Assembly: GCA_017461945.1 (NCBI GenBank)
Contig: JAFTSB010000067.1
Coordinates: forward strand, 42,781 to 106,780
Length of the DNA stretch: 64,000 nt
Reading direction: 5' to 3'
Source of the DNA: Clostridia bacterium
Lineage (GTDB): Bacteria; Bacillota; Clostridia; Oscillospirales; CAG-272
Numbering within the stretch: position 1 is the first letter of the stretch; each line of letters begins with the position of its first letter. Made by a program: the position numbers and the translations under genes. The notes under the pieces were generated by a model that was not told the origin of the DNA, searched no databases, and saw only the letters and a program-made list of their open reading frames with translations. This document shows, piece by piece, positions 27,088 to 33,661 of the stretch.

Positions 27088-27507
27088 TTAGAGGCTGTCA
27101 ACGATGCGATGTGCCCAATCCAGACAAGCTTTCTTTTCCTCATCCTTAACGCTGTTAAGGAAGGGAAGGAAGCTGCTCTTTACATAAAAGACCTCGTCCT
27201 TAACGTTAGTTCCGGCCTCGGCCAAAATACCTTTAACGTACTTGGCACCGGCTTCGTTGCCGTCGATAACCAAAGCCACGTTCTGGGCACGAGCCTTGGT
27301 CAGCTCGCGGCAGAACAAGCGAACCTGGTTTTCCAGATCGCCCTTGGTAGCAAGCAGCAGAACAACCAAACGCTCGTTATTGCAGGAATAAGCAGGAGGA
27401 ATAACGTCGGTAGCGTTGATGTCAAGACCAAACTCCTGATGAATCATAGGGGCGAGAGCGGCAACTTTGCCTTTGCCGGTATGAAGAACGCGCATTTTGA
27501 TAGCCAT
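27088..27507 (-). CDS. Hypothetical protein, possible flavodoxin-like fold
   Basis: 139 aa alpha/beta pattern, ggagg SD, own extended -10 promoter. Confidence 0.65.
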   Translation of the reverse strand: MAIKMRVLHTGKGKVAALAPMIHQEFGLDINATDVIPPAYSCNNERLVVLLLATKGDLENQVRLFCRELTKARAQNVALVIDGNEAGAKYVKGILAEAGTNVKDEVFYVKSSFLPFLNSVKDEEKKACLDWAHRIVDSL

Positions 27508-27676
27508 GAAAAAACCTCCAAAATATGTTTAAAATATCATGTAAATATGATCTTATTATAGTATAACATAGCAGGGAAGCATAACGCAAATATTTTTATA
27601 AAAAAAGAATAAAATCGGAGTTTTTAACAGTTTTTTATGGCATTTTTTATTCAAAATGCTTTAATAAACCCTTCTT

Positions 27677-27708
27677 TTTTTTGTTGTTGACTTGTCAACA
27701 ACAAAAAA
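27677..27708. repeat. Perfect 15-bp inverted repeat
   Basis: ttttttgttgttgac-tt-gtcaacaacaaaaaa. Confidence 0.8.
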
Positions 27709-27758
27709 GGGTGCCATTACAATTATTTTAAATAAGTCAAGGTATCAATTGTTTTTCG

Positions 27759-28145
27759 CATTTAAAATTTTTAATAAAAGCCAAAGATGGAATTGTCTAT
27801 TAAAAAAAATAATCAAAGATAATAATAAATATTTTTTATGGAAACAATCCGTGGTCGTTGCAGCAGTTTTTTGTAGAATGAAAAGATTAAATACTTTCAT
27901 TAAAAATTTTAAATAAAAACGATGGATCGTCCATCCGGCAACTTTTTATTGATTGGCGGAAAACGCGTTCGCAAATGGCAATGAAAATTTTTGAACAAAA
28001 CAAGGGAGAGTCCGTTGAAAGAAATTTTAAAAAAGCATATATGATCCGCCACAGCCTTTATAACATTAAAAATTTTCAACGAAAACGATGAACTGTCCAT
28101 AAGATCCATTTTTATTAAACGCATCCAAGCGATCGGCACGCGTTC
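27759..28145. repeat. Degenerate ~37-bp direct repeats in an AT-rich intergenic region
   Basis: Copies at 27898 and 28064 are 31/37 identical; 27979 is 26/37 to 27898; weaker copies at ~27759 and ~27823. Confidence 0.55.
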
Positions 28146-28317
28146 AGAATAAAAGGTATTAAAAGTTCAAAACGCTCCTTGGCTCAGGGGCTATTTATTT
28201 ACCAATGTAGATCAGAAAGAACACTTCGAAACAAACCTCGCTAAAAACACCATTTAACAAAGACATCCGCATTGCAACGCGTTCGATTGATTTATCCCGG
28301 CTTTTTTATCCCCTTTT

Positions 28318-28343
28318 TTATACAAAACTTTGATTTTGTATAA
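28318..28343. other. Palindromic tyrosine-recombinase-type site (candidate dif; attL of the prophage)
   Basis: TTATACAAAA-CTTTGA-TTTTGTATAA: perfect 10-bp arms and 6-bp spacer; AAAA-CTnnnn-TTTT core resembles difSL/difH. Confidence 0.6.
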
Positions 28344-28385
28344 TTTAATACATATTTTAAAAAGGGGTAAGCCCTCCACGTTTAT

Positions 28386-28414
28386 AGTATATCATACTCT
28401 TTTTGTTTTGTCAA
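28386..28414 (-). promoter_or_regulatory. Outward-facing sigmaA promoter at the prophage left end (faces the phage operon in the circle)
   Basis: Minus strand TTGACA-17-TATACT with extended TG; predicted TSS ~28379. Confidence 0.75.
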
Positions 28415-28440
28415 GAAGTAATTTGCGCCAACTGGGTGGG

Positions 28441-28507
28441 GCGAAGGGGCGCTGCACTTGGGTGCCCCCCACTACTGGTGGGGCCCCCAAGTGAGCGCCA
28501 TTTTCGC
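28441..28507. other. GC-rich long hairpin, candidate rolling-circle origin or packaging signal
   Basis: Nested stems gcgaa/ttcgc, ggcgct/agcgcc, cacttggg/cccaagtg and ccccac/gtgggg with a TACTG loop. Confidence 0.5.
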
Positions 28508-28612
28508 AAAGCAAAAAGCCGTAGCGCTTGCGCCACGGCTTCAATTTGCCCTACTCTTAGACTTGCTCCGTTATGGACGGGCTTCGTAAACAAGCCGAAA
28601 GGAGGTGATATT

Positions 28613-28699
28613 ATGCTACTACATCGTATTTGCTATTTTGTCAATGTCCATGGCCAAATGTTCCTTGACATAATAGCATTGCTCGTTGTCGCAAGATAA
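28613..28699 (+). CDS. 28-aa hydrophobic peptide, putative type I toxin
   Basis: MLLHRICYFVNVHGQMFLDIIALLVVAR; AGGAGGTGA SD; 14/28 identical to copy 2 with synonymous changes. Confidence 0.7.
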   Translation: MLLHRICYFVNVHGQMFLDIIALLVVAR

Positions 28700-28723
28700 C
28701 ACGCTCTTTCGGCTTGCCCGTCT

Positions 28724-28752
28724 ATTATACCATAACGGGCAAGTCTTGTCAA
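28724..28752 (-). promoter_or_regulatory. Consensus antisense promoter (putative antitoxin RNA)
   Basis: Minus strand TTGACA-17-TATAAT with extended TG, firing back across the peptide gene. Confidence 0.75.
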
Positions 28753-28937
28753 GAGCCAAGGTAGATACCTCAATCCACCCCTAACCGAATTTGTAGCCGT
28801 GGAAAACGCAAGCGCTTTTTGTTGGCCCGGGGGAGCATCTCGCCGCGCACCTCTCGGTGTCTGCGGCTTCGGTCACCTCGTCTGCGGACTCGGAAAAATG
28901 GCAATTAGGGATGGTGTCCCTGACCCACCCACCCTTG

Positions 28938-29732
28938 TTAGTCGGTGTCGGTTGTGAGCGGTTCCCTTCTCTCTTTGGGCAAGGTCAAAAGGCGGTTGGT
29001 CTGTAGCACCTTCCATCGGTCTGCAACTTCGGTGGGTACGCTTTTATAACGGCCTGCATAGCAGTGGGTATCGTAGGAGCGGAAAAAGGGGTTGATGAAG
29101 CCAACGAGGGTGCGCATATTGTCTTCGGTATTCCCTTCTTCTACTGTCTTGATTTCCTCGGAAATGCTGATGTTACGGCACTTGACCCAGTAGAAGCACA
29201 GAAACTTCTTAAAGTGCATCAAGTTATACACTACGTTAATGCGGCGGCGGATTTCAAGCACGATGTTTTCGGAGCACTGGTCATTGCACACGATATAGCC
29301 ACCGCGCGTGTAGTGTCGAAATAATCGAATGGCTTCGTTAAAGTTCTTCAGCACCAAGGGATTTTTGAAATCAAACTGATTGGCAAATGCACCTATCTCG
29401 TCAATGAAAACCACGGAGCGTGGGACGATACGTTCCCACAAAAGCAAATGCCCTGCTGTGAGAACTTCGGCATACTCCTTGCGGCTGATGCGCAAAGGGA
29501 TAGACGAATATAGCAAGGGCTTTTCCCATCTATCCTTGGGGTGCAAAAGGTTGTGCCATTTCACCTTGCGGCGGTTTTTACGTAGCAACTTCTTTGCCTG
29601 CTGTACCGATTTTAATGACTTCCCCGAGCCAAGGCCGCCAGTATAACATTGAATGGTGTCATAATGGATGATGTAAGGCTTAATGAGCCACACAAGAAAG
29701 ATGATTGTCAGCGCAATGATAAGAAATGCCAT
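28938..29732 (-). CDS. Zot-like / pI morphogenesis ATPase with N-terminal TM helix
   Basis: N-terminal TM, Walker A GGLGSGKS, Walker B VVFIDE, RHY and downstream Q motifs; aggag SD. Confidence 0.88.
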   Translation of the reverse strand: MAFLIIALTIIFLVWLIKPYIIHYDTIQCYTGGLGSGKSLKSVQQAKKLLRKNRRKVKWHNLLHPKDRWEKPLLYSSIPLRISRKEYAEVLTAGHLLLWERIVPRSVVFIDEIGAFANQFDFKNPLVLKNFNEAIRLFRHYTRGGYIVCNDQCSENIVLEIRRRINVVYNLMHFKKFLCFYWVKCRNISISEEIKTVEEGNTEDNMRTLVGFINPFFRSYDTHCYAGRYKSVPTEVADRWKVLQTNRLLTLPKERREPLTTDTD

Positions 29733-29733
29733 A

Positions 29734-30339
29734 TTATCTCCTTCCTCGCCACTCACTACCATAGAATTTATCAAAATCTACAGTATCAGCGGCAACACCG
29801 ATATTTATACCATCCATTCTGACCTCGCCGTCCTCTACCATCCGTTGCCAGTCCAACGGCAACAAACAATACTTGAAAGCGTTAAACCAATCTTTCGAAT
29901 TAAAGACTCGGTCAAGATAACTGGTCATAGTTCCCCACGCATTACGGATAGGCAGAGTCAACCACTCTACGGCGGTTTGGATATTTGACCATAACTTGGG
30001 AAAAACACCGCCAAGATTGTCAAAGAAATGCCGCATATAAGTTATACAGTTATTCATAAAGTCTGTGATGGCCTTGGGCACTTCAGACCATTTTTCAACA
30101 CTAACTTCTTGCCAACTGGGGAAATTAGGCATTAACTCAACATAGCGCGGCACAAACCCTTCCTTGTGATATTCTACATCATCAAGGGTTGGGAAGGTTT
30201 CAAAAAGCACGGCCATACGATTGAGATATTGAGCCGCATTGATGTGATAAGTGCTCACGATCGGCATTGATCCTATCTTTGCAAACAGAGCCGATACCAG
30301 TAATGCGGCACACAAAACGAAAACAAAAAACGTTCTCAT
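29734..30339 (-). CDS. Phage membrane-associated protein (pVI-position)
   Basis: N-terminal hydrophobic segment and amphipathic helices; ATGA-coupled to the upstream ORF; lies directly before pI. Confidence 0.65.
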   Translation of the reverse strand: MRTFFVFVLCAALLVSALFAKIGSMPIVSTYHINAAQYLNRMAVLFETFPTLDDVEYHKEGFVPRYVELMPNFPSWQEVSVEKWSEVPKAITDFMNNCITYMRHFFDNLGGVFPKLWSNIQTAVEWLTLPIRNAWGTMTSYLDRVFNSKDWFNAFKYCLLPLDWQRMVEDGEVRMDGINIGVAADTVDFDKFYGSEWRGRR

Positions 30340-30533
30340 CGTTTCAACCACCCTTTATATTTCATAAAGCGAAGCAAAAAATGGTAAGGCACACACACAA
30401 AGAAATGTACCATCACGGCGGCTACGGCGGTGATGAAGATATAGTAGAAGGTCTTTTCGCCATAGCCTTCGTATAGGCTTAAGTCGCCAAAATGAGGCAT
30501 AATGTACGTATGAAGAATTTCATAAAAGGTCAT
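30336..30533 (-). CDS. Small single-TM phage protein (minor coat candidate)
   Basis: 65 aa, one TM, basic C-terminus, ggaggg SD. Confidence 0.65.
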   Translation of the reverse strand: MTFYEILHTYIMPHFGDLSLYEGYGEKTFYYIFITAVAAVMVHFFVCVPYHFLLRFMKYKGWLKR

Positions 30534-30545
30534 ATACTTCCCTCC

Positions 30546-31496
30546 TTATCCGAAGAAGAATTTGCCACAGATGCCAATCACGAAAGCGGCAACAACGAAC
30601 GTAAACACTTGGACTACTACACCTGCAAGATTGAAACCGAAAACCTCAAAATCAAACATGGTCGATACCGCCCTATAGGGAGCAAATGCAATCTCGCCTA
30701 TAATGTCAAGGAAACTTTCGCTTACATCGTTGCTTTCGCCTTTAGTGACTCCGTTTCTGTACGCAGTATTAACTTGTTCAGCAACATCAGCAAGGCCTGC
30801 GGCCTTTCCTTCGTCAAAGCCTTCATTATAGCCGCTTGGTTCACCATCGTTAAAACCCTCTTCGTACCCGTCATTCCACGCAAAGCCCAAATCTTCCTCA
30901 TCATAATATCCTGCATGTTTTTCAATCCAAAAGATAGGGGGTGTATATGGCATTGAATAGACTCCAACCGTACTGGGTAAAGCGTTCAAATTCATTGAAA
31001 TAGAAGTGTCTAAACCATTACCACCATTGGCATAATAAAGCCATATGGTGCAATGTGCCCCAGCCTTAACCACAGAAGACGAACACTCGTAATTATCATC
31101 ACCGATAAGCCGTATTTCGCTTTCAGTACCATCTAAATTCTCGATATAAACAACAATCTGCCAGTCAAGCATTTCAGAGTCCTCTATTGGGCGATCCGTA
31201 TATTCAACAGTAACACCGAAATATACATCTTGGGTGGTAAACAATTCAAAAGAGCCAAGTTTAATTTCATCAGTTTGGCTTTCGTGATCTATTACCATAT
31301 CAATCACCCCATTTGAGTGAATAACATAATTGCACTCCTGCCTTTCAATAGGAATTTCAGGCATTTCATTCCAAATGATGTGATTTGTATAAATATTTTC
31401 TTCCATTGGGCTAAGATATGTTGCCGATGCCGTAACGGCAAACGCAGAAACCATCAGCACAACCAGAGTCAGCAATACAAACATTCTCTTTTTCAT
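30546..31496 (-). CDS. pIII-like adsorption protein
   Basis: Signal peptide ending ASA, acidic N-terminal domain, GxxxG linker GYEEGFNDG...GYNEGFDEGKAAG, C-terminal TM anchor. Confidence 0.7.
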   Translation of the reverse strand: MKKRMFVLLTLVVLMVSAFAVTASATYLSPMEENIYTNHIIWNEMPEIPIERQECNYVIHSNGVIDMVIDHESQTDEIKLGSFELFTTQDVYFGVTVEYTDRPIEDSEMLDWQIVVYIENLDGTESEIRLIGDDNYECSSSVVKAGAHCTIWLYYANGGNGLDTSISMNLNALPSTVGVYSMPYTPPIFWIEKHAGYYDEEDLGFAWNDGYEEGFNDGEPSGYNEGFDEGKAAGLADVAEQVNTAYRNGVTKGESNDVSESFLDIIGEIAFAPYRAVSTMFDFEVFGFNLAGVVVQVFTFVVAAFVIGICGKFFFG

Positions 31497-31510
31497 TTCT
31501 TTCTCCTTTC

Positions 31511-31547
31511 AAATAAAAACCCCATCCGGCATTGCTGGATGGGGTTT
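31511..31547 (-). terminator. Intrinsic terminator directly after the major coat gene
   Basis: aaaccccatccagc/gccggatggggttt stem plus U run; same position as the terminator after gene VIII in Ff phages. Confidence 0.85.
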
Positions 31548-31551
31548 ATTA

Positions 31552-31776
31552 TCAGCCGCGCAGGTGCTTGATAAAGGCAAAAATGCCCATTACAAGACCA
31601 ATCGCAAGACCAATGCCGCCGACAGTCAGACCAACTTTTGCAATGTCCGAGAGCACAGGCTCGGCTGCTGCAGGGTCAGCATAAATCAAATGCGAAAATG
31701 CCGTTTTAATGCCCTGCGTCATAGGCTCGATGATGCCAGTAAAGCCATCGCCAATCTGTTTAACGATATCGCCCAT
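31552..31776 (-). CDS. Major coat protein candidate (pVIII-like)
   Basis: 74 aa, amphipathic N-terminal half, Gly-rich TM helix, basic C-terminus KHLRG; aaggag SD. Confidence 0.75.
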   Translation of the reverse strand: MGDIVKQIGDGFTGIIEPMTQGIKTAFSHLIYADPAAAEPVLSDIAKVGLTVGGIGLAIGLVMGIFAFIKHLRG

Positions 31777-31778
31777 TA

Positions 31779-31940
31779 TTACTCCTTTCCGACAAGCGCA
31801 AGAAGCAAGCGACGGTCGCTCTTGAACACGGGTTTGATGGGAATATCAAAACCGCGCACGCGCAGAATTAACTGCTCAAAATGTACCTTCTCGCCCGTCT
31901 CCTGATTGTCAAAATCACGGGTTTCAGTATAAAGTTCCAT
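31779..31940 (-). CDS. 53-aa protein, ssDNA-binding (pV-position) candidate, not in the ORF track
   Basis: MELYTETRDFDNQETGEKVHFEQLILRVRGFDIPIKPVFKSDRRLLLALVGKE; aggagg SD; between rep and coat. Confidence 0.65.
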   Translation of the reverse strand: MELYTETRDFDNQETGEKVHFEQLILRVRGFDIPIKPVFKSDRRLLLALVGKE

Positions 31941-31996
31941 ATGCACATACCTCCTTTATGGCTTTATTATAAAGCCATAAATCCGAATATGATATA

Positions 31997-32581
31997 TCAC
32001 TCTAAAATTTCTCCAGTTTCTGTATCGCACGTATTCCACATAGGGCTCTGTGCCAAAGCAACCAATTTCAGCAAGGAATTTGCTTGATAAATGAAGGAAG
32101 GGTGTGTGCGCAAAAATGCCTTGTAGCCAATTTGATTTAAAGCAAGGGATTCAATATCTTCAAGCAGAGTTTCGTTCTTATCTTCTTCGGTCTGCTCTGT
32201 GACCTTTTGAAGCACTTCTTCTAATTCGGCAGGGGCTAAATTAGTATCAAGGTCAACTTGCTTATATTCGGGCTTTTCGGGGTTATCCAAATGGAGCAAA
32301 TATCGCACCGCGCCGTTGGGCTTGGTGGCAAGAGGGGCTTGCACAAATCTATTGTCAAGGCCAAGCCGCTTGGCTATGGTGTACTGAAATTCCCTTTTAT
32401 CCGACATCACAACAAGGTGAAAATGGACTTTTTTGGCCGTTCCATCTTCGTTAATGTCTTGGTCATGTTTTATCATCGCATAACGATAGCCAAAGGCCTT
32501 AAGGCCTGCCCTTACGCTCTCTACGTGTTCCTCATAGAACATGGACGGAAACCACTTTGCACGCGCTCCTCTTTCAGCCAT
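31997..32581 (-). CDS. Rolling-circle replication initiator, HUH superfamily, pMV158 RepB/Rep_2-like
   Basis: HDQD...KKVHFHLVV (HUH motif 2) and YLLH (motif 3 Tyr). Confidence 0.85.
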   Translation of the reverse strand: MAERGARAKWFPSMFYEEHVESVRAGLKAFGYRYAMIKHDQDINEDGTAKKVHFHLVVMSDKREFQYTIAKRLGLDNRFVQAPLATKPNGAVRYLLHLDNPEKPEYKQVDLDTNLAPAELEEVLQKVTEQTEEDKNETLLEDIESLALNQIGYKAFLRTHPSFIYQANSLLKLVALAQSPMWNTCDTETGEILE

Positions 32582-32855
32582 TTCTCGCCACCTCGCTTTC
32601 GTTCACAATTTGTTCATGGACAATGGACAATGGGGGCAGATGGTCGCAGTACATCTGCCCTGCCCACCCTTCCTCTGCAGGGTCAAAATCGTCAACGAAA
32701 ATACCGTAATATGGGTTTTGAGTACATCCAGTTACAATGCGGTGCACTTGTAACCAAGATAGACCAAGGAAACGTGCAACGTCTGCTTGCGAGTAAAACA
32801 ACGCTACTGGTAATTGTGCTTCGGTGCGCTTTTCGTAAATAAGATATGAACGCAT
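32574..32855 (-). CDS. Putative HTH DNA-binding protein, first gene of the phage operon
   Basis: SQADVARFLGLSWLQVHRIV helix-turn-helix-like segment; ggagg SD; overlaps the rep start. Confidence 0.6.
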   Translation of the reverse strand: MRSYLIYEKRTEAQLPVALFYSQADVARFLGLSWLQVHRIVTGCTQNPYYGIFVDDFDPAEEGWAGQMYCDHLPPLSIVHEQIVNESEVARNG

Positions 32856-32886
32856 AAAAAAACCTCCACAGTTTTTACTGTGGAGG
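32856..32886 (-). terminator. Terminator/SD-sequestering hairpin directly before the first phage ATG
   Basis: Minus strand CCTCCACAGT-AAAA-ACTGTGGAGG-TTTTTTT-ATG. Confidence 0.75.
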
Positions 32887-32973
32887 GCTTGCAATCTAAA
32901 AATATAATAAATTATGCCCTATACGGGCACTCGCTCTACCCGCGCGCCTTGCGGCTTTCAAAGCACGGGCGAG

Positions 32974-33079
32974 TACAAAATCAGCATTTTGTGCAAAGAA
33001 GCAAATGTATAGGTAAAAAGCCCTACTGGCTTTTTGCAATCCTTCTTTACACAAAACACACGCTCGATTTTGTATAATT
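32974..33079. other. Two inverted dif-like sites (attR region, folded-attP remnant)
   Basis: TACAAAA-TCAGCA-TTTTGTGCAAAGAAG at 32974-33001 is complementary to CTTCTTTACACAAAA-(11 nt)-TTTTGTA at 33042-33074. Confidence 0.65.
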
Positions 33080-33141
33080 GTATGTATAAATAGATGAGGG
33101 CATGTGCCCCCTTGCTCCCTTGTTATAGCATACCTTTCGAA

Positions 33142-33364
33142 TTGCGCCACGGTTGTCAATTTGCCCTACTCTTAGACTTGCTTCGTCATGGACGAGCTTC
33201 GTAAACAAGCCGAAAAGAGGTGATATCATGCCGTTTAAAACTTTTTGCTACATAATCAATACTCACACCCAAATGATACTTGATATTGTAGCACTAATCG
33301 TTATTGCAAAATAACACGCTCTTTCGGCTTGCCCGTTTATTATACCATAACAGGCATGTCAAGA
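33142..33364 (+). repeat. Type I TA-like module, copy 2
   Basis: Direct repeat of 28528-28754; antisense TGnTATAAT retained, -35 spacer only 12 bp. Confidence 0.8.
33228..33314 (+). CDS. 28-aa hydrophobic peptide, putative type I toxin (not in the ORF track)
   Basis: MPFKTFCYIINTHTQMILDIVALIVIAK; GAGGTGA SD; paralog of 28613-28699. Confidence 0.7.
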   Translation: MPFKTFCYIINTHTQMILDIVALIVIAK

Positions 33365-33391
33365 AATTGTTCCCTTTTGCTTAATGTTATC

Positions 33392-33661
33392 TCAGATGTT
33401 CTTTTTTTCGCCACTATTTTTATACTTTTGGCGCGTAGCCTCGCCGCCACGCAAATGGCGCTCGTTTTTGTTTTTTTGTAAAATATCCTGTACGCGCTCA
33501 AACAAACAACGATTGACCCCTTGCAATTCTACTGTAACGTCTTTATGTACGGTGCTTTTGCTGATGCCAAAATATTGTGCAGCGGCACGAACGGTGCAGC
33601 CGTATTCCACAATATAATTCCCGATCAGCTCGCAGCGCCTTGGTTGACTGAAGTATGCCAT
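33392..33661 (-). CDS. spoIIID: Sporulation transcriptional regulator SpoIIID
   Basis: TVRAAAQYFGISKSTVHKDVT and ERHLRGGEATRQKY. Confidence 0.93.
   Translation of the reverse strand: MAYFSQPRRCELIGNYIVEYGCTVRAAAQYFGISKSTVHKDVTVELQGVNRCLFERVQDILQKNKNERHLRGGEATRQKYKNSGEKKNI

Follow-up and report, generated by a model that had tools for sequence, protein, structure and literature searches.

Filamentous phages that lack an integrase and insert at the chromosomal dif site have been described from Vibrio and other Proteobacteria (CTX-phi, VGJ-phi and TLC-phi; passages of PMC5357621), as integrative mobile elements exploiting Xer (IMEX). For monoderm hosts, the accessible part of a 2026 preprint gives B5, Philemon and CAK1 as the only characterised filamentous phages, to which the available sections of PMC10061712 add the secreted inoviruses of Enterocloster; in the available portions of PMC9723715, PMC10061712 and PMC6813254, the inoviruses of gut Firmicutes are presented as abundant and poorly characterised. 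How integrase-less filamentous phages of monoderms lysogenise is not addressed in the literature searched: we found no report of Xer/dif integration by inoviruses of Gram-positive bacteria, and the word Xer is absent from the main texts of PMC10061712, PMC6813254 and PMC9723715, while the Supplementary Notes of Roux et al. might treat integration. Here we analyse a 64,000-nt stretch (the window) from a Clostridia bacterium (contig JAFTSB010000067.1, positions 42,781 to 106,780), whose genome is labelled G000 and whose contig is labelled G000:C43. The element under study, with its phage genome proper at window positions 28346-33065, carries eight open reading frames (ORFs) at 28938-32894, all on the minus strand. 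We consider it probable that this segment is a prophage integrated in dif, and that it represents the genome of a small filamentous phage, of inovirus type and Tubulavirales-like, with a monoderm host among the gut Clostridia.

Comparison of a 9.8-kb region around the element with 40 relatives gave matches to some part of it in 33, including 23 of the 24 that belong to the genus, and none of the 40 contained phage genes. In the relatives, the left flank (to about 27525) adjoins the right flank (from about 33415), which reveals an empty site. The first-pass annotation had conceded that a prophage would be refuted if the same genes occurred as stable host genes in all relatives, and this is contradicted by their presence in 0/40. 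The intergenic DNA printed for six relatives contains a conserved palindrome, TATACAAAA-N6-TTTTGTATA, where the prophage sits in G000. The window retains this palindrome at 28319-28342 (TATACAAAA-CTTTGA-TTTTGTATA), forming an intact dif-like site, attL (28318-28345). An exact 14-bp direct repeat (GATTTTGTATAATT, repeat family D14) flanks the element at 28332-28345 and 33066-33079, with the spacing of 4734 bp already reported in the first-pass annotation; by itself, a repeated 14-mer could arise by chance in AT-rich DNA of 8 kb, and we accept it as real because the empty sites in the relatives validate the boundary. The left copy of the repeat comprises the last 2 nt of the palindrome spacer, the right arm and ATT. 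The distal junction (33049-33079) reads TACACAAAA, an 11-nt spacer and TTTTGTATA, which amounts to one arm, with 1 mismatch, and a wrong spacing. What the phage side has in common with dif is just one arm plus 1-3 nt of the centre and, judging from these sequences, the phage attP appears to be a one-armed mimic of dif; the partial mimicry of dif that characterises IMEX is seen here in one arm with 1 mismatch plus the 14-bp identity.

In agreement with the first-pass annotation, a Pfam search of the eight ORFs detected neither an integrase nor a transposase nor a secretin, and a PHROGs scan of the same ORFs was likewise without integrase or transposase. By both databases the element is therefore, as is typical of IMEX, devoid of a recombinase gene of its own. 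The absence of an integrase now has a likely explanation, because the insertion is in a dif-like site.

The target is a perfect 24-bp palindrome with a 9-6-9 layout (10-6-10 with the flanking T/A). It is unique in G000 at up to 2 mismatches (0 matches with the reversed control) and, at up to 1 mismatch, is present in 32 of 40 genus genomes, exactly once in 30 of these 32 (control, 0 matches); it is also single-copy in five of five further lysogen genomes. Across the genus the arms are invariant, without compensatory changes, and the 6-bp centre differs between species, so that a protein-bound recombination site fits better than an RNA stem. The palindrome was located 0-25 kb from the maximum of the cumulative GC skew in 5/5 contigs (G000:C43, G041:C10, G043:C11, G056:C18 and G057:C7). 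On G000:C43 (128 kb) the skew climbs to about 58-70 kb and then falls, with the site at 71.1 kb; G041 shows a plateau at 167-187 kb and the site at 191.7 kb, G043 the site at 149.8 kb and a maximum at about 160-165 kb, and in G056 and G057, lysogens of other lineages, the site falls in the skew-maximum bin or at most 1 kb away. These contigs are not mutually independent, since spoIIID is nearby in all of them. Conversely, in the closed genome G033 (~2.2 Mb, another family), with a single perfect palindrome at 1,146,000 and dnaA at 325-798, spoIIID is 710 kb away, so that the terminus position is there independent of local synteny. The palindrome, single-copy and placed at the terminus, opposite dnaA, is a putative chromosomal dif, and insertion at dif is what is expected of an IMEX. 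In the available parts of PMC3325230, the single-recombinase site difH is described as having matched palindromic domains, which end in A4/T4 and enclose a 6-bp centre of variable sequence, and we read the palindrome of the window as a candidate XerH/difH-like dif site.

The palindrome could instead be a regulatory or structural hairpin, or a phage-specific att site, with integration carried out by a phage function, such as an HUH Rep acting on the hairpin, or by another integrase of the host or of a mobile element. The motif is indeed unlike the canonical XerCD dif core, HUH enzymes are generally known to be able to act on hairpins, and G000 encodes five tyrosine recombinases besides the Xer-like one described below; moreover, the motif is missing, at the limits used, from some genomes (8/40 in the genus and one complete genome of the order). 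We nevertheless judge this reading improbable, in view of a site that is conserved, single-copy and also present in non-lysogens, that sits at the skew switch and opposite dnaA, and whose invariant arms, lacking compensatory changes, enclose a variable 6-bp centre. Additionally, in every lysogen examined the repeats end inside the 6-bp centre, as expected of an exchange by a tyrosine recombinase, relatives with unrelated Rep genes share the site, and the 64-kb window around the terminus offers no better dif-like candidate. In that window, canonical-looking dif cores (ATAA-N6-TTATGTNAA, up to 2 mismatches) gave 13 matches versus 6.25 expected, none of them palindromic or outstanding, and were discarded.

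The host recombinase that would act on the palindrome is the only strongly Xer-like one among the six tyrosine recombinases of G000 (C62:82648-83667, about 340 aa; XerC, 215 bits; XerD, 203 bits; XerA, 198 bits; XerS, 162 bits). Its gene has a single ortholog in 37 of the 40 genus genomes, with 74-88% identity, and lies about 100-117 kb from the dif-like site. The site has the layout of a palindromic dif with a 6-bp centre, as used by a single Xer recombinase; the one conserved Xer-like gene (37/40), a candidate for this role, stays below the equivalog cut-offs and coexists with other recombinases.

Several of our results count against a dif served by a single Xer. The Xer-like protein scores below every NCBIfam Xer equivalog cut-off (for XerS, 162 vs 267 bits), and five good genomes have 3-7 Phage_integrase matches each, i.e., 2-6 besides the Xer-like protein; because of these further tyrosine recombinases, a two-recombinase system is possible. 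The palindrome is absent at up to 1 mismatch from 8 of the 40 genus genomes (70-97% complete) and at up to 2 mismatches from one 100%-complete genome of the same order, and in G000, G041 and G043 it is 10-25 kb off the skew maximum.

We made a few further observations around this site. In the genus, as in two lysogen lineages outside it, the gene spoIIID (33392-33661 in the window) and the dif-like site are 0.1-7 kb apart. The two genomes with two palindromes each are G014 and G017. In G017 they are at C7:130-153, on the left-flank contig, and C88:199-222, on the right-flank contig, about 130-220 nt from the contig ends, which would fit an unassembled element between two dif copies; the extra palindrome of G014 (C102:2613-2636) has another centre and is on a separate contig. 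Left of the palindrome, the AT-rich (26% GC) stretch 27750-28120 contains repeat units of about 80-85 bp (AAAATTTTT...GAAACGATGGAC-GTCCAT...GAAG), with four copies in the window (families D2/D3). At least 4 near-identical 84-bp tandem units occur at L007:2760-3100, with looser copies in other relatives, and the array always adjoins the dif-like site at the terminus. Proteins might bind along this array, as they do at a fork trap or at a site that organises the chromosome.

An alignment-based scan of species genomes retrieved 30 related loci in metagenome-assembled genomes (MAGs) of Clostridia, whereas a scan of genome contigs with the single ATPase protein found no relative. A palindrome with up to 2 arm mismatches is present in 12 of the 30 loci, and in 10 of these 12 it starts 114-301 nt past the match to Zot, the morphogenesis ATPase discussed below. 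Both ends were printed for eight prophages, seven of which (L025, L026, L029, L030, L031, L034 and L036) follow the same pattern: their repeat is made up of host flank, a single arm and the initial 1-3 nt of the centre, and the distal junction consists of the arm, 6-12 other nt and a degenerate TTTTGT(T/A/G). The distal junction of the window, with its 11-nt spacer, is of the same type. In L042, the site is on the opposite side of the morphogenesis genes. The same palindrome is used by relatives with unrelated Rep genes; the replication module, like the 201-aa ORF described below, is not conserved among the relatives. A relaxed attP pattern applied to smaller and more distant loci returned mostly chance matches, and only those in L022, L027, L032 and L040 look meaningful.

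Circularity is seen in relatives only, that is, in L024 and L049, circular contigs with terminal overlaps (141 nt in L024), and in bajarodino virus 71, besides a contig from run X6 (see below) that is a joint of either a circle or a tandem. The size of the element (4734 nt between repeats) and its rolling-circle Rep are compatible with a small circular inovirus genome of about 4.5-12 kb. We also observed that the 3.7-4.3 kb contigs L024, L035 and L048, which carry phages of this family, are binned in MAGs labelled Nanosyncoccus, Bacteroidaceae and Alphaproteobacteria; mis-binning of free phage genomes is a likelier explanation than hosts in these groups. In L031 (3896-5203), the ATPase gene is followed by 182 nt, a one-armed junction and, 1.1 kb further, a full palindrome, a layout that points to the stacking of a further small element, or of a relic, at dif.

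The viral nature of the element rests largely on its pI/Zot-like morphogenesis ATPase (28938-29732, minus strand; 264 aa). We placed its start by eye at ATG 29732 (the ORF is open to TTG 29774), 1 nt past the stop of the upstream gene and preceded by the ribosome-binding site GGAAGGAG, and this start agrees with the nearly invariant M15 of the family alignment. The protein has a Walker A (GGLGSGKS), a Walker B (VVFIDE) and an N-terminal transmembrane (TM) helix, and matches the PHROG family 'Zot-like' with an E-value of 2.5e-4. Its family comprises 519 proteins at E<=1e-3, out of 1203 candidates; the closest are 85-88% identical, on contigs that reach at longest 4568-4950 nt. Using tblastn against GenBank phages, we found 13 records, all of them inoviruses from rodent and pig faeces and all with 'Zonula occludens toxin' annotated beneath the match, the best being the circular bajarodino virus 71 (5276 nt, 53.8% identity, E 2e-45). 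The first-pass annotation had held that very few isolates of such viruses exist; the clade itself, with 519 homologous ATPases and 13 GenBank records, is not rare in sequence data. An AlphaFold (AF2) model built from a 32-row alignment (pLDDT 80.4) has an N-terminal helix at residues 11-34, in support of the N-terminal-TM pI that had been annotated. In Foldseek searches against the PDB, this model retrieved at rank 1 the N-terminal domain of Neisseria Zot (2r2a, E 1.3e-6), which was the top fold match with both aligners, and 5 of the 11 best rows of a BFVD fold search are named Zot of Inoviridae. It is the model and these fold matches that decide the identity of the ATPase, which by the model has the Zot/pI fold, and the element possesses the morphogenesis ATPase expected of an inovirus. 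Grouping of the ATPase with VirB4/FtsK proteins, which had been named as a possible refutation, did not materialise, the Zot N-domain being the top fold match.

The structural genes point in the same direction. The 74-aa coat-like protein (31552-31776, minus strand) consists of an amphipathic helix (residues 2-31), a Y-x-D-P hinge, a TM helix (44-73) and a basic tail, KHLRG, and thereby has the features of an inovirus coat protein, i.e., a small (30-90 aa) helical protein with one TM and a basic C-terminus. Of 31 related loci, 17 have a homolog upstream of Zot, at a distance of about 2-2.6 kb, and most of the Atlas clusters nearest to the protein are Hofneiviricota. Immediately behind the coat gene, we read by eye a strong intrinsic terminator or attenuator (about 31511-31547, minus strand; AAACCCCATCC-9 nt-GGATGGGGTTT and then a T-run), skipped by the automatic terminator scan because its loop limit was 8. 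It is followed by the gene for a pIII-like protein of 316 aa (30546-31496, minus strand), with a signal peptide and a C-terminal TM anchor, which matches no Pfam family above cut-off. Conserved counterparts of the C-terminal ~90-110 aa of this protein occur in 8 loci, one of them from bajarodino virus 71, and the protein probably acts in adsorption or in the termination of assembly. Next comes a single-TM protein of 65 aa (30336-30533, minus strand), presumably a minor virion or assembly protein, with homologs in 4 related loci that always sit between the p316-like gene and Zot. The last gene before the ATPase encodes a 201-aa protein with an N-terminal hydrophobic segment (29734-30339, minus strand), for which we refined the start by eye to ATG 30339, where an ATGA is shared with the upstream gene (the raw ORF is 29734-30351, 205 aa); it has no family match and is not conserved among the related loci. 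As first annotated, the eight ORFs are co-oriented and tightly coupled: neighbouring ORFs are separated by -8 to +55 nt, and all eight are open and translationally coupled.

Not all searches agree with a filamentous phage. The ATPase reaches 16.1 bits (E 0.008) with Pfam PF05707 Zot, under the gathering cut-off of 20.3. At E<=0.01, 32 family members match nSTAND_NTPase5 (9/32), AAA (7/32) and Zot (6/32), and given these mixed matches the sequence by itself says 'P-loop NTPase'; likewise, PHROG Zot-like is matched by just 5/32 members, and the family profile against PDB sequences gave only noise (E~0.6). Pfam Phage_Coat_B matches the coat-like protein below its cut-off, at E 0.015, and is touched at that E-value by just 1 of 15 members of the coat family, so that Pfam homology to coat proteins is not established; the coat model had no match in BFVD at E<=0.001. 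No relative was retrieved from IMG/VR, whether the ATPase was used singly or as an alignment. The check for CRISPR spacers suggested beforehand was run and came out without support: a DNA search in 401 genomes of the order gave no supported match (only 2 candidates per genome were scored, with low sensitivity), and of 4 short matches outside G000, the three that were checked lie outside repeat arrays.

Since the Rep belongs to a plasmid family, the ATPase falls under the Pfam Zot cut-off and some relatives match generic AAA or STAND models, the element might be taken for something other than a virus, namely an integrative rolling-circle plasmid or a mobilisable island with an ATPase that acts as a transfer protein of the FtsK/VirB4/TcpA type. 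We regard this as very improbable, however, because the Zot N-domain is the top fold match with both aligners and Zot proteins of Inoviridae lead the viral fold list, the coat-like gene, the terminator and the protein with signal peptide and anchor follow the inovirus order, and relatives have been deposited as circular virome genomes. A transfer element is also at odds with the lack of a relaxase or coupling protein in the eight ORFs as searched with Pfam.

The remaining genes concern replication and its control. The Rep (31997-32581, minus strand), a rolling-circle initiator, is the sole protein of the element above its Pfam cut-off (PF01719 Rep_OBD, 46.4 bits vs a cut-off of 24.6, E 5.5e-12), which confirms the pMV158 RepB type proposed in the first-pass annotation. 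It contains the sequences HFHLVV (HUH-like) and RYLLH, which we take to be rolling-circle initiator motifs. A 55-aa ORF (31779-31946, minus strand) occupies the position of the inovirus ssDNA-binding protein; it has no family in Pfam or PHROGs, nothing usable in Atlas and only 3 homologs besides itself, and its earlier label 'SSB-like' reflects gene position only. The first gene (32574-32855, minus strand) encodes a putative DNA-binding or regulatory protein of 93 aa, with a likely start at ATG 32855 and GGAGG upstream (raw ORF, 32574-32894); its helix-turn-helix (HTH) signal is weak (HTH_Tnp_ISL3, E 0.006, below cut-off). Upstream of it, the non-coding region 32856-33065 (minus strand), with hairpin stems at 33013-33037 and 32930-32914, is a candidate promoter plus double-strand origin.

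At the other end, the non-coding stretch 28346-28937 (minus strand) contains GC-rich hairpins (about 28425-28542) and a small-ORF module. For the minus strand of 28346-28560, the predicted folding energy is -49.4 kcal/mol (z -5.0), a stability that none of 200 shuffles attained, and the hairpins are a candidate packaging signal or complementary-strand origin. The module includes a small hydrophobic ORF of 28 aa (MLLHRICYFVNVHGQMFLDIIALLVVAR; 28613-28699, plus strand), antisense to the phage genes, and overlapping it a minus-strand unit with a perfect TTGACA-17-TATAAT (sigma-70) promoter at 28752-28724 and a terminator-like stem at 28542-28515. There are two diverged copies of the module, at 28528-28745 and 33143-33360, 81% identical and each flanked by inverted repeats; in the right copy the 28-aa ORF (33228-33314) keeps frame and length, with mostly conservative changes, and the -35/-10 spacing is disturbed. 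The 28-aa ORF and its antisense unit look like a candidate type I toxin-antitoxin module, which could stabilise the prophage. The module matched no Rfam family, and an Rfam scan of 27400-33500 gave just two sub-threshold chance matches. A TACTAC sequence in the left small ORF was rejected as a pMV158-like nick site, being on the non-phage strand and missing from the right copy.

The second copy of this module belongs to a partial duplicate of the left end of the prophage in the right flank (33080-33375). Here, a 205-nt repeat (33156-33360; family D1) is 81% identical to 28541-28745, and the similarity to the prophage left end begins right after the 14-bp repeat; at this position, relatives have only about 75-200 unrelated nt. 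Because 33080-33375 is phage-derived, the right 14-bp repeat may mark a junction between two phages and not a simple attR. In X6, a run from another study that contains a relative of about 90-95% identity, a 490-nt contig joins 32984-33103 to 28407-28539 and continues with a stretch most like 33203-33315. This joint is that of a genome, either circular or in tandem, with a left end similar to the right flank in the window, and 33080-33375 is probably what is left of a second, X6-like phage copy. On the simplest reading, dif would have been occupied first by an X6-like phage; once regenerated, it would have taken up the present phage, and little of the older copy would have survived.

By analogy with the Vibrio elements, integration would be by the host Xer, as in an IMEX. 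The single-copy Xer-like tyrosine recombinase would exchange strands between dif and attP at the shared boundary of arm and centre; as proposed for the Vibrio IMEX, Xer might exchange one strand pair on the shared arm, and a second exchange or replication would complete the junction. Integration would rebuild an intact dif beside the ATPase end and leave a crippled hybrid at the Rep end, so that dimer resolution would still work and the prophage would not be readily excised, its stability being due, in this proposal, to an attR that is no substrate. Rep would then make the progeny ssDNA circles, which the 74-aa protein would coat in the membrane and which, from what is known of the family, would be extruded through a membrane-anchored complex of the pI-type ATPase, without a secretin. 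The phage stretch in the right flank suggests that integrations at the regenerated dif could be repeated or in tandem, as in the CTX/RS1/TLC arrays of Vibrio. Tentatively, and with a likelihood that we place just short of even, we extend this scheme to the whole clade of gut Clostridia inoviruses, which would be IMEX with a one-armed dif mimic, integrated by a single host Xer at a palindromic XerH/difH-like dif that is rebuilt so that elements stack, and which would produce progeny in the CTX style, from the prophage plus an adjacent partial copy and without excision.

In run X1, the depth of the prophage on its contig was 8.0-8.1, vs 7.85 for the flank, with no sign of extra free copies, although this is a weak measure, and the 490-nt X6 contig is as compatible with a tandem array as with a circle. 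An inovirus-derived prophage could thus be real and yet a locked-in or defective copy, a cryptic resident or a helper-dependent satellite that makes no virions alone. This is a less likely situation, if one to be taken seriously: the prophage depth is equal to the flank depth also in X2; the distal junction is crippled by its 11-nt spacer, so that a simple Xer excision looks unlikely; neither the 201-aa ORF nor the replication module is conserved among relatives; and a second Zot-like element in G000 could act as helper. On the other hand, the eight ORFs are open and translationally coupled, and pieces at least 99% identical to the element in X5, a run of a further study, together with the relative in X6, argue for recent mobility. 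Moreover, according to the available text of PMC6744903, CTX-type phages make virions without excision. Short 'skip' joints (X1, X2 and X6) from 28343-28345 to 33528-33543, with sides of 26-34 nt and several mismatches, were rejected as evidence of excision, since they derive from the empty dif-spoIIID sites of other species.

The second Zot-like gene of G000 is outside the window, at C31:62500-70900 (locus L094:4500-12852), and matches the family profile with an E-value of 2.7e-21. It is part of a co-oriented block with a Rep_1 protein (pC194-type, 5.8e-63), a protein with a Phage_VG64 domain and its own 285-aa tyrosine integrase, and this block is probably a second filamentous-type prophage, with an integrase. 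Zot-like ATPases of this kind are present in only 3 of the 40 genus genomes.

If our reading is true, this would be, within the literature searched, the first family of Xer-exploiting phages in Gram-positive bacteria, and the palindrome would define dif for a major gut lineage, for which such a dif has not been described. The locus offers a testable answer to how integrase-less filamentous phages of monoderms lysogenise, namely, by hijacking Xer at dif. For many uncultured gut Clostridia, the motif would predict where the replication terminus lies and where such phages integrate. The locus also supplies a candidate single-Xer system and a rule for locating the ends of such prophages, which have a full palindrome beside the ATPase gene and, at the opposite end, a copy with one arm. 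Detectors keyed to tRNA genes or to integrase-linked att sites would miss them. The stacking of elements at dif, known from the evolution of the cholera pathogen, may likewise occur in gut commensals.

The closest functional parallel is with the Vibrio IMEX phages, which, in the available passages of PMC5357621, are likewise integrase-less inoviruses at dif, have an attP that mimics dif partially, with one recombinase arm and part of the central region, and regenerate an intact dif on one side, with signs of successive or tandem insertions. They differ in their host, which here is a monoderm, spore-forming member of Clostridia; in their dif, here a perfect palindrome probably served by one Xer and not by XerC plus XerD; and in their attP, which here has a displaced, degenerate second arm (spacer of 7-12 nt) instead of the CTX-type forked hairpin. 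Additionally, no toxin or other cargo is evident here, and the use of Xer is deduced from sequence.

The dif-like site itself is closer to the XerH/difH systems of Helicobacter and Campylobacter and to XerS/difSL of streptococci, with which it shares palindromic arms ending in A4/T4, a variable 6-bp centre and a single copy near the terminus, along with a long (about 340 aa), single-copy candidate recombinase. The arm sequences differ, as seen by comparing the Campylobacter site TGAAAA-CTATAA-TTTTCA (from the available parts of PMC3325230) with TATACAAAA-N6-TTTTGTATA, and the recombinase is here under the XerS cut-off and about 100-117 kb from dif, not adjacent to it. As for replication, the element is similar to rolling-circle plasmids of the pMV158 RepB type in its Rep_OBD domain above cut-off and its HUH-like HFHLVV sequence, and differs in that its Rep serves a phage genome.

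As a virus, the element resembles the inoviruses of gut Firmicutes, i.e., those from pig faeces with a B5-like gpI, the Enterocloster phages and the bajarodino viruses (a name on which we found nothing in the literature), in its small genome, pI homolog, Rep and TM structural genes, and in lacking a secretin; Clostridia hosts and prophages flanked by direct repeats are also features of this group in the available parts of PMC9723715 and PMC10061712. At 4.7 kb it is smaller than the Enterocloster prophages, given as 6.5-8.5 kb in the portion of PMC10061712 available, and what it shares with its best GenBank record, bajarodino virus 71, is limited to the ATPase (54%) and, in the pIII-like protein, the C-terminus (29%). 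We thus conclude that the virus is a new member of the gut-Firmicutes inoviruses, and that its integration is IMEX-like and distinguished from the described cases by the type of host, the palindromic dif and the design of attP.

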